64,000 nucleotides of DNA from Parachlamydiales bacterium (GCA_963801825.1 CAWDGI010000002.1:85155-149154); one strand, 5' to 3'; numbered from the stretch's first letter, positions 62,376 through 63,446 are shown. Notes: a model not told the origin generated them from the sequence alone. Made by a program: numbers and translations.

Positions 62376-63446
62376 TCACATAACATATTGCTTCTCTTGA
62401 ATAAGATGGATTGCCATCGTAGTAAATTCCACCTCAAACGTCTTTCCGAACTCTAAAGCCTGATCGAAAAGATGTCTTTTTACAAGATTTTTAAAAAAAA
62501 TGTTTTTAAGCCATGCTCGTTCTCCAAGTGATTTTTCTAGTTCAACTGAGTCTTCAGGTGAGTTTTTTTCGATAAACTTCTGAATTAATTCAATATCATC
62601 TCGAAAAAACCCTCTTTCAAGAGCATGATCAAGAACAGAATGAAATTCATGCGTAGTATAAGGAAACATTTTACTCAAATCTTCATGTATAATCTCATAA
62701 TGAATAAAAGTAATAACATCTTGATCAAAATCATCATTTAAGGATCTTATATTACTTAATATTTTTTTTATAATTTCTATGAGTATGTCGTGATCGGTAA
62801 TGTAACCTTGCTGAATCAGATGAATGACTAGAGGAGATAAATTCATTTCAACAAGTTTATAGCAAACATGAGAACAACCTGATTGTTTTATTTCATCAGG
62901 TAGAGAAGAAATTAAATCAATGATTTGTTCATAAGATAGAAGACCATAAGCATACAATTCAGCAGCTCTTCTGAAACCATTGTCAACCATATCCTTCTGG
63001 TTTTTTACTGATATCCAACCTTTGTTTTGGCTAATTTGTTTTGCTCCTAATTTATTCCAATAGGAAATTGTTTCTTTGGCAAGCTGTAAATCATAATGAG
63101 AAGCTCGAATAGAGAAAATATTAGGGCGATTAACTTCTAACTCTCGTTTCCAATTTTTAGGATTTATGTTTGCAATTCTTCCTATCTCATTCGAGTGAGT
63201 AGAAATACATGAAGAAAATCCTTTAGAAGCAAAAGAAATACGACAGACTGTTTTACAATTCAGACGGATCAATCTAAGAAGGGCATTTGGACTAGGAGTC
63301 TCACTTTTTCCTGATAAAATAAAATTAAATATTCTATAGATGACTTCATTAGGGAGTGAATTCCAATGATTAGTGCCTTTTGAGTCCGGAATTTCATAAC
63401 AAGCTAATGCTTGAGAGCTTACATGATGACTACTATTAACCGACAT
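62376..63446 (-). CDS. F-box domain protein (eukaryote-like effector candidate)
   Basis: LPNEVIYRIFNFIL matches the F-box consensus LPxEIxxxIFxxL. 356 aa. A further out-of-frame ORF (62204-62437) follows immediately. Confidence 0.6.
   Translation of the reverse strand: MSVNSSHHVSSQALACYEIPDSKGTNHWNSLPNEVIYRIFNFILSGKSETPSPNALLRLIRLNCKTVCRISFASKGFSSCISTHSNEIGRIANINPKNWKRELEVNRPNIFSIRASHYDLQLAKETISYWNKLGAKQISQNKGWISVKNQKDMVDNGFRRAAELYAYGLLSYEQIIDLISSLPDEIKQSGCSHVCYKLVEMNLSPLVIHLIQQGYITDHDILIEIIKKILSNIRSLNDDFDQDVITFIHYEIIHEDLSKMFPYTTHEFHSVLDHALERGFFRDDIELIQKFIEKNSPEDSVELEKSLGERAWLKNIFFKNLVKRHLFDQALEFGKTFEVEFTTMAIHLIQEKQYVM

Follow-up and report, generated by a model that had tools for sequence, protein, structure and literature searches.

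In this study, we have analysed a stretch of DNA of 64,000 nucleotides, hereafter the window, in which a reading frame of 356 codons probably encodes a lineage-specific, fast-evolving and divergent F-box-type effector candidate of a Parachlamydiaceae-type chlamydia, a reading to which we give slightly better than even credence. It is favoured by a real ORF, by top Pfam matches that belong to the F-box clan only, by the architecture of the protein, by Parachlamydiaceae-like flanks and by the lack of a transmembrane segment and of a signal peptide; counting against it are sub-threshold scores, inconsistent registers, a missing Trp, the lack of PDB and Foldseek support, and low pLDDT. The gene and its parts are as follows.

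62376-63446, minus strand: orphan F-box-like gene, an ATG-started ORF of 356 aa with its stop codon at 62376-62378
63315-63356, minus strand: canonical F-box helix-1 motif LPNEVIYRIFNFIL, residues 31-44
63192-63365, minus strand: whole F-box-like similarity, residues 28-85, made up of helix 1, an inserted loop and degenerate helices 2-3
62379-63119, minus strand: all-helical C-terminal region, residues ~110-356, from AF2 secondary structure with a pLDDT of 50-60 at best
63485-63514, minus strand: sigma-70-like promoter candidate TTAACC-18-TATCAT, a consensus match only, ~40 nt 5' of the ATG

The frame is present where the initial annotation had placed it, on the minus strand, with an ATG start and with the motif that had drawn attention to it at residues 31-44. 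Its length is far past what chance would give in DNA of 32% GC: shuffling the local 2 kb 1000 times gives longest open frames that average 81 codons and are never longer than 154. As the frame is longer than every ORF of the shuffles and also has a coding codon-position composition (GC1/GC2/GC3 of 0.43/0.31/0.21, a coding-type gradient that is intact across the whole length), it is not a chance ORF and is a real gene, with a GC3 of 0.21 as compared with ~0.5 in the core genes. The encoded protein shows neither a transmembrane segment (maximum KD19 hydropathy 1.06) nor a signal peptide; residues 1-25 are polar and rich in Ser, 11 of them being S, T, N, Q or H. The promoter candidate sits in a stretch of 19% GC, and sigma-70-like sites are no more numerous in the region than shuffles would predict.

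The N-terminus had been described as a textbook F-box. The part of this description that stands is the first helix, since residues 31-44 satisfy the helix-1 signature L-P-x-E-(hydrophobic)2-x2-I/L-(hydrophobic)-x2-L, together with a similarity to the F-box clan beyond chance; the part that does not stand is the rest of the domain, with scores below the curated thresholds and degenerate helices 2-3. When the N-terminal 120 aa are compared with 24,736 Pfam models, every one of the top three matches is from the F-box clan, namely F-box PF00646 (E=0.0017, 18.7 bits; gathering score 20.5), F-box-like PF12937 (E=0.0021, 18.2 bits; gathering score 24.3) and PRANC PF09372 (E=0.016, 15.9 bits; gathering score 25.8), and none of the three reaches its gathering score. 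With the full protein as the query, PF12937 is found at E=0.004 (17.3 bits, again with a gathering score of 24.3), PRANC at E=0.018 and PF00646 at E=0.51. Helix 1 is followed by an inserted loop, SGKSETPSPNA (about residues 45-55), the insertion amounting to 7-16 residues as against ~4 residues in the canonical H1-H2 loop, and deletion of 7-10 loop residues makes PF12937 rise to 22.2 bits, still below 24.3. PF12937 aligns residues 28-69 with profile positions 1-29 of 47 and PF00646 aligns residues 61-85 with profile positions 15-39 of 43, with registers for helices 2-3 that differ by six residues, and PRANC matches residues 23-43 with its profile positions 68-87. For helices 2-3, whose signature at canonical spacing is L-L-x-L-x-x-V-C/S-K/R-x-W, the candidate segments are ALLRLIRLNCKTVCRI and ASKGF; helix 3 lacks its conserved Trp, with Phe77 in that place in one register only.

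An empirical null for these scores was obtained from 60 composition-matched shuffles of the N-terminal 120 residues compared with Pfam, among which there is not a single F-box clan match and three unrelated families appear at E<=0.05, as the E-values predict. Likewise, the proteins of three neighbouring AT-rich orphan genes give no F-box clan match in Pfam. The helix-1 motif, written as a regular expression, occurs once in the 37.7k aa of six-frame ORFs of the window and effectively once in 937k aa from the ORFs of 80 other loci, the six matches found there all corresponding to one conserved antisense frame. Because the top matches come from this clan only, the shuffles and the neighbouring orphans are clean, and the helix-1 motif is rare, the resemblance is more than chance, sub-threshold but non-random. 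The gene product is therefore best termed an F-box-like candidate, predicted to have helix 1 alone in canonical form and helices 2-3 degenerate. With the motif ~30 residues into the protein and a helical domain after it, the arrangement is the one usual for F-box proteins.

Single-sequence AF2 models are of low confidence, with a pLDDT of 41.9 (full protein) and 48.6 (residues 21-109); in these low-confidence runs helices are found at 33-44 and 53-71, residues 33-44 being helical in both. A Foldseek comparison of the AF2 model, itself a low-confidence input, with the PDB gave no match below E=7, and sequence searches of the PDB returned no F-box protein, one giving only a chance match to mevalonate diphosphate decarboxylase and another nothing. 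The two grounds for refutation that the initial annotation had named, a lack of HMM support and a motif outside a predicted three-helix fold, leave its claim neither refuted nor confirmed, with a non-random similarity to the F-box clan on the one hand, and no gathering score reached and no confident fold on the other. Its statement that the rest of the protein is helical and has no other recognised domain is borne out, as AF2 gives helices throughout and Pfam, NCBIfam and the PDB contain no known domain matching residues ~110-356. Internal repeats in this C-terminal region, the presumed substrate-binding module, are weak (segment similarities of z ~2-3 at most).

The sub-threshold HMM scores, the single canonical helix followed by conflicting helix 2-3 registers, the missing Trp, the long insertion after helix 1 and the lack of an F-box match in the PDB by sequence or by fold would all suit the main rival explanation, in which a genuine, expressed orphan helical protein carries an F-box resemblance that is non-functional, does not bind Skp1 and has a role apart from ubiquitin ligases. 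The motif might then have arisen by convergence, as an LPxE-plus-hydrophobic helix, or be the relic of a decayed F-box, and the protein might be structural, regulatory, or an effector acting by another mechanism. We consider this explanation, in either form and with any of these roles, possible but unlikely; the decay and mobile-cargo explanations discussed below rank lower still. Against it, three F-box-clan models are independently the best matches whereas 60 shuffles and three neighbouring orphans give none, the position of the motif and the architecture suit F-box proteins, and the prior for F-box effectors in such organisms is very high (PMC4209131). A divergent F-box-type effector is thus the reading that we retain.

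Homologues of the 356-aa protein are absent among ~15 billion proteins. A word-indexed search of 5.8 billion clusters returned the protein itself only, in a cluster of one member, and an exhaustive phmmer search of 1.84 billion representatives returned only the protein itself and a protein of 3764 aa (P0002). The latter was rejected as a homologue, being a 24% chance match summed over seven repeats: it consists of about seven near-identical tandem repeats of 294 aa, and its E=5e-9 against the 356-aa query arises from this summing, which calls for caution with the output of exhaustive searches. Searching with the F-box region alone gave no candidates, and no relative of the protein was found in GTDB genomes, viral contigs or plasmids. 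As far as these searches reach, the protein is a true singleton; with zero homologues, analyses of conservation, alignment, covariation and alignment-based structure prediction are impossible.

The chlamydial origin is indicated by the neighbouring metabolic genes, a cystathionine gamma-synthase-like gene (Cgs), kbl and tdh, since the flanking core genes are closest to those of Parachlamydiaceae and other Chlamydiota (Tdh up to 77%, Cgs ~70%). Judged by these genes, the genome belongs to a Parachlamydiaceae-type environmental chlamydia. The amoeba-symbiont setting proposed in the initial annotation is consistent with these nearest relatives, the Parachlamydiaceae being a family with hundreds of F-box proteins (PMC4209131). 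The cgs-kbl-tdh genes (51170-54603, plus strand) have 46-50% GC compared with a window mean of 42.6%, and their best matches after the chlamydial relatives are in Proteobacteria, at ~60-64% identity; they may represent an old horizontal acquisition common to Parachlamydiaceae. Directly after kbl-tdh, a gene at 54982-56355 (plus strand) encodes a Schlafen AlbA_2 and HATPase_c_4 protein with a C-terminal HTH-like region; it stands where core-like DNA gives way to AT-rich DNA and has a weak relative in one of 80 tdh loci.

From ~57.2 kb to the end of the window the GC content falls to 31-38%, below the 42.6% of the window and the 46-50% of the core genes. Within this part lies an AT-rich block of genome-specific genes of ~6.5 kb (57.2-63.7 kb), which contains three tandem paralogues, a Gly-rich ORF of 102 aa, a MITE and the F-box-like gene. 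The reading frames of the block that bear on the argument, besides the F-box-like gene, are the following.

57440-58684, 58738-60000 and 60325-61353, minus strand: tandem paralogue array of orphan genes (414, 420 and 342 aa; 67-75% identical)
61580-61888, plus strand: Gly/Ala-rich ORF of 102 aa with hydrophobic stretches (GC1 0.52, GC3 0.21)
62204-62437, minus strand: ORF of 77 aa overlapping the 3' end of the F-box-like gene, most likely a chance ORF

The family of tandem paralogues is confined to this genome, and a synteny comparison of the kind suggested in the initial annotation, covering 80 tdh loci (~20 of them chlamydial), found no relatives of the F-box-like gene or of its orphan neighbours. 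The 102-aa ORF, which runs convergently to the F-box-like gene with the MITE between the two, looks like a small membrane protein and has neither a family match nor a relative in the related loci. The third paralogue is frameshifted near 60340, its C-terminal similarity going on in another frame at 60347-60081. The region tolerates decay, as shown by the frameshift in the neighbouring paralogue and by a GC3 that is very low.

In such a region the F-box-like gene could itself be in decay or non-functional, perhaps what a frameshift or truncation has left of horizontally acquired AT-rich DNA and open only by chance and recent origin, an explanation that would account for a singleton among ~15 billion proteins and for the low GC3 relative to core genes, and that could also draw on the frameshift in the adjacent paralogue, on the IS and MITE activity nearby and on the 77-aa ORF that overlaps the 3' end of the gene. 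We regard it as improbable, as 356 codons in DNA of 32% GC stand against a shuffle maximum of 154, the start is an ATG, the codon-position pattern is intact from end to end, and the 77-aa ORF bears no sign of being a lost C-terminus. The initial annotation had suggested that this ORF might be a 3' extension or remnant, a suggestion that we do not uphold: its 77 aa fall short of the 81 codons that the longest chance ORF has on average, its GC1-3 values of 0.40/0.26/0.39 are not coding-like, it has no Pfam match, and its similarity to the 356-aa protein is not significant, 72 of 500 shuffles scoring as high. A frameshift or extension is accordingly unsupported by length, by similarity and by codon-position GC. 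A divergent F-box-type gene remains the preferred reading. Its position between two mobile elements is defined by the following features.

63743-64000, minus strand: right end of an IS630-family element, its last 258 bp within the window, with transposase codons at 63760-63999 and the stop codon at 63757-63759
63741-63742, no strand: TA at the IS630 junction, within ACTAGG (CTAG target), from sequence reading against the junctions of a metagenomic copy
63447-63740, no strand: non-IS spacer of 294 bp, from the start of the F-box-like gene to the IS630 junction
61908-62067, no strand: palindromic MITE of 160 bp, with 78-nt arms that are 94% complementary and the TSD CTGTATG

The transposase end noted at 63757-64000 is a genuine C-terminus, as it matches Pfam DDE_3 PF13358 (E=1e-6, 29.1 bits, above the gathering score of 28.6) and NCBIfam transpos_IS630 (E=3.6e-10, profile positions 249-299 of 299). 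A protein-based scan of metagenomes led to an element on contig Ga0105048_10193316 (hereafter L081) that is 92.7% identical in nucleotides to the IS fragment of the window, the transposase fragment being 96% identical in amino acids to the L081 transposase; an exact-match metagenome scan with a 25-mer from the IS end gave zero matches. The L081 element is complete (341-1572, 1232 bp, two ORFs), has the inverted repeats GTACGACATGTCA.../...TGACATGACGTAC and is flanked by TA within CCCTAGGG, with junctions that read CCC-TA-[IS]-TA-GGG. This suggests that the sample of L081 contained a relative of the organism, or else an IS of the same lineage. A further inverted repeat on the contig, at 1946-2453 and separate from the element, has arms of 112 nt (1946-2057 and 2342-2453) that are 97% complementary; it may be another MITE.

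A preference for TA, in a CTAG target, is an established trait of the IS630 family. The initial annotation had asked for the IS ends and the TA target in the spacer, and for the right end both can now be given. The terminal inverted repeat ends at 63743, because the identity with L081 stops at 63739 and the window reads ...TGACATGCCGTAC-TA-GG from 63755 to 63739, which leaves the TA at 63741-63742 in a CTAG. The window element is thus like the IS630 family in its DDE_3/transpos_IS630 C-terminus, its short inverted repeats and its TA in CTAG; the near-identical L081 copy shows the family's form of ~1.2 kb with two ORFs, whereas the window holds the right end alone. Between this end and the F-box-like gene, the spacer contains a patch of 42% GC (63541-63700) amid DNA of 19-30% GC, and the patch has a hairpin at 63655-63673. 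No match to Rfam or to tRNAs was found in the window, spacer included, and the spacer has no other copy there; the patch may be a small RNA or what remains of another element.

On the other side of the gene, the coordinates given earlier for the MITE are exact, and the element has two more copies in the window, the three (16552-16714, 24394-24556 and 61908-62067) being 88-97% identical. Alignment of the three copies with their flanks sets the ends at CTGGACTTCGG...CCGAAGTCCAG and reveals a perfect 7-bp TSD, CTGTATG, at 61901-61907 and 62068-62074; the copy at 24394-24556 has a 7-bp duplication of its own, TAAAATA. The element is short and non-coding, with inverted repeats, a TSD and multiple copies, which are all the traits that define a MITE, and it looks like a simple, independent insertion between convergent genes. 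Its termini are unrelated to the inverted repeat of the IS630 element, and its parent transposase is not an IS630. The direct repeat at the 61908 copy is in fact 13 nt long (CTGTATGCTGGAC), because the target DNA after the TSD repeats the first 6 nt of the MITE; the element may prefer sites like its own end.

As the initial annotation pointed out in suggesting mobile cargo, the gene does have a mobile element on either side, and the block in which it lies is genome-specific and of atypical composition. That it is the passenger of a mobile unit bounded by the MITE and the IS630 element is highly implausible, since the IS630 element is a standard single IS with its junction, defined by homology to L081, at 63741-63743 and 294 bp upstream of the gene, the perfect 7-bp TSD of the MITE speaks for a simple insertion, the MITE termini are unlike the IS630 repeat and IS630 duplicates TA and not 7 bp, neither element has a second copy bracketing the gene, and no other copy of the gene was found in plasmids, viral contigs or protein databases. 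A composite transposon was also considered and rejected, because the flanking elements are of different kinds, with unrelated termini and a separate junction each, and no two copies of the same IS bracket the gene. The IS630 element (upstream) and the MITE (downstream) are therefore two independent intergenic insertions, which do not mobilise the gene.

Taken as a divergent F-box-type effector, the protein would act as follows, each step being drawn from what is known of the family. Type III secretion would be directed by the Ser-rich, polar N-terminus (residues 1-25). Residues ~28-85 would form a divergent F-box, with a canonical helix 1, an enlarged H1-H2 loop and degenerate helices 2-3, which would dock on the host Skp1 and so bring the protein into a host SCF ubiquitin ligase, and the all-helical C-terminal 250 residues would then recruit a host substrate. 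If the F-box is functional, the protein would be one more adaptor that hijacks host ubiquitin in a very large chlamydial repertoire, with an unclassified substrate-binding domain, and Pfam thresholds would be shown to miss divergent members.

More speculatively, and in our estimation doubtful, the AT-rich DNA could be an "effector nursery" and the gene an effector from it, very young or hyper-diverged, that combines a minimal F-box with a wholly new helical substrate-binding domain. Such a minimal F-box, on this equally tentative proposal, would consist of a Skp1-binding first helix and a remodelled H2-H3. Symbionts would then be assembling new SCF adaptors from non-homologous sequence, and the host target would be unlike those of LRR, TPR and ankyrin F-box effectors. 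The interest of the gene is otherwise local, for the cataloguing of effectors and for orphan-gene birth in symbionts, and it leaves the current picture unchanged. What the present analysis contributes is chiefly correction: "textbook" is too strong a word for the motif, the protein is a true singleton, the IS630 and MITE elements are no vehicle for the gene, and the IS630 end is precisely defined.

A number of known systems provide a frame for the divergent F-box-type reading. Chlamydiae have more than 370 F-box proteins, mostly in Parachlamydiaceae and subject to lineage-specific birth and death (Domman et al. 2014, PMC4209131); several have been shown to be T3SS substrates, and tandem arrays occur (PMC4209131). 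The AT-rich block described here is in line with the lineage-specific birth and death published for F-box and other effector families of Parachlamydiaceae (PMC4209131). The gene resembles the lineage-specific chlamydial F-box superfamily (NEX1a/NEX2; PMC4209131) in combining an N-terminal F-box-type motif with a presumed interaction domain, in being a lineage-specific candidate T3SS effector of a Parachlamydiaceae-type genome, and in lying beside tandemly duplicated, genome-specific genes. Unlike the superfamily, the 356-aa protein has no detectable sequence relationship to its members, its F-box is below the Pfam thresholds, its C-terminus is of an unclassified helical type instead of LRR, TPR or ankyrin repeats, and the gene is single-copy, with no expanded family.

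AnkB of Legionella pneumophila and other bacterial F-box effectors, cited in PMC4209131, offer a parallel for the proposed Skp1 docking and for the redirection of SCF in amoebae. AnkB differs in having a clear F-box, ankyrin repeats and a CaaX motif, whereas here the F-box is degenerate and neither ankyrin repeats nor CaaX are present, and in its Dot/Icm system, as against the T3SS proposed for the 356-aa protein. In the case of the poxvirus PRANC domain (PF09372), a truncated F-box-like motif, the location is different, as PRANC is C-terminal and follows ankyrin repeats while the motif here is N-terminal and sub-threshold; the two are alike in that strong similarity is concentrated on the first helix. 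F-box effectors are already well documented in amoeba-associated chlamydiae, and the gene described here would at best be an unusually divergent addition to them.
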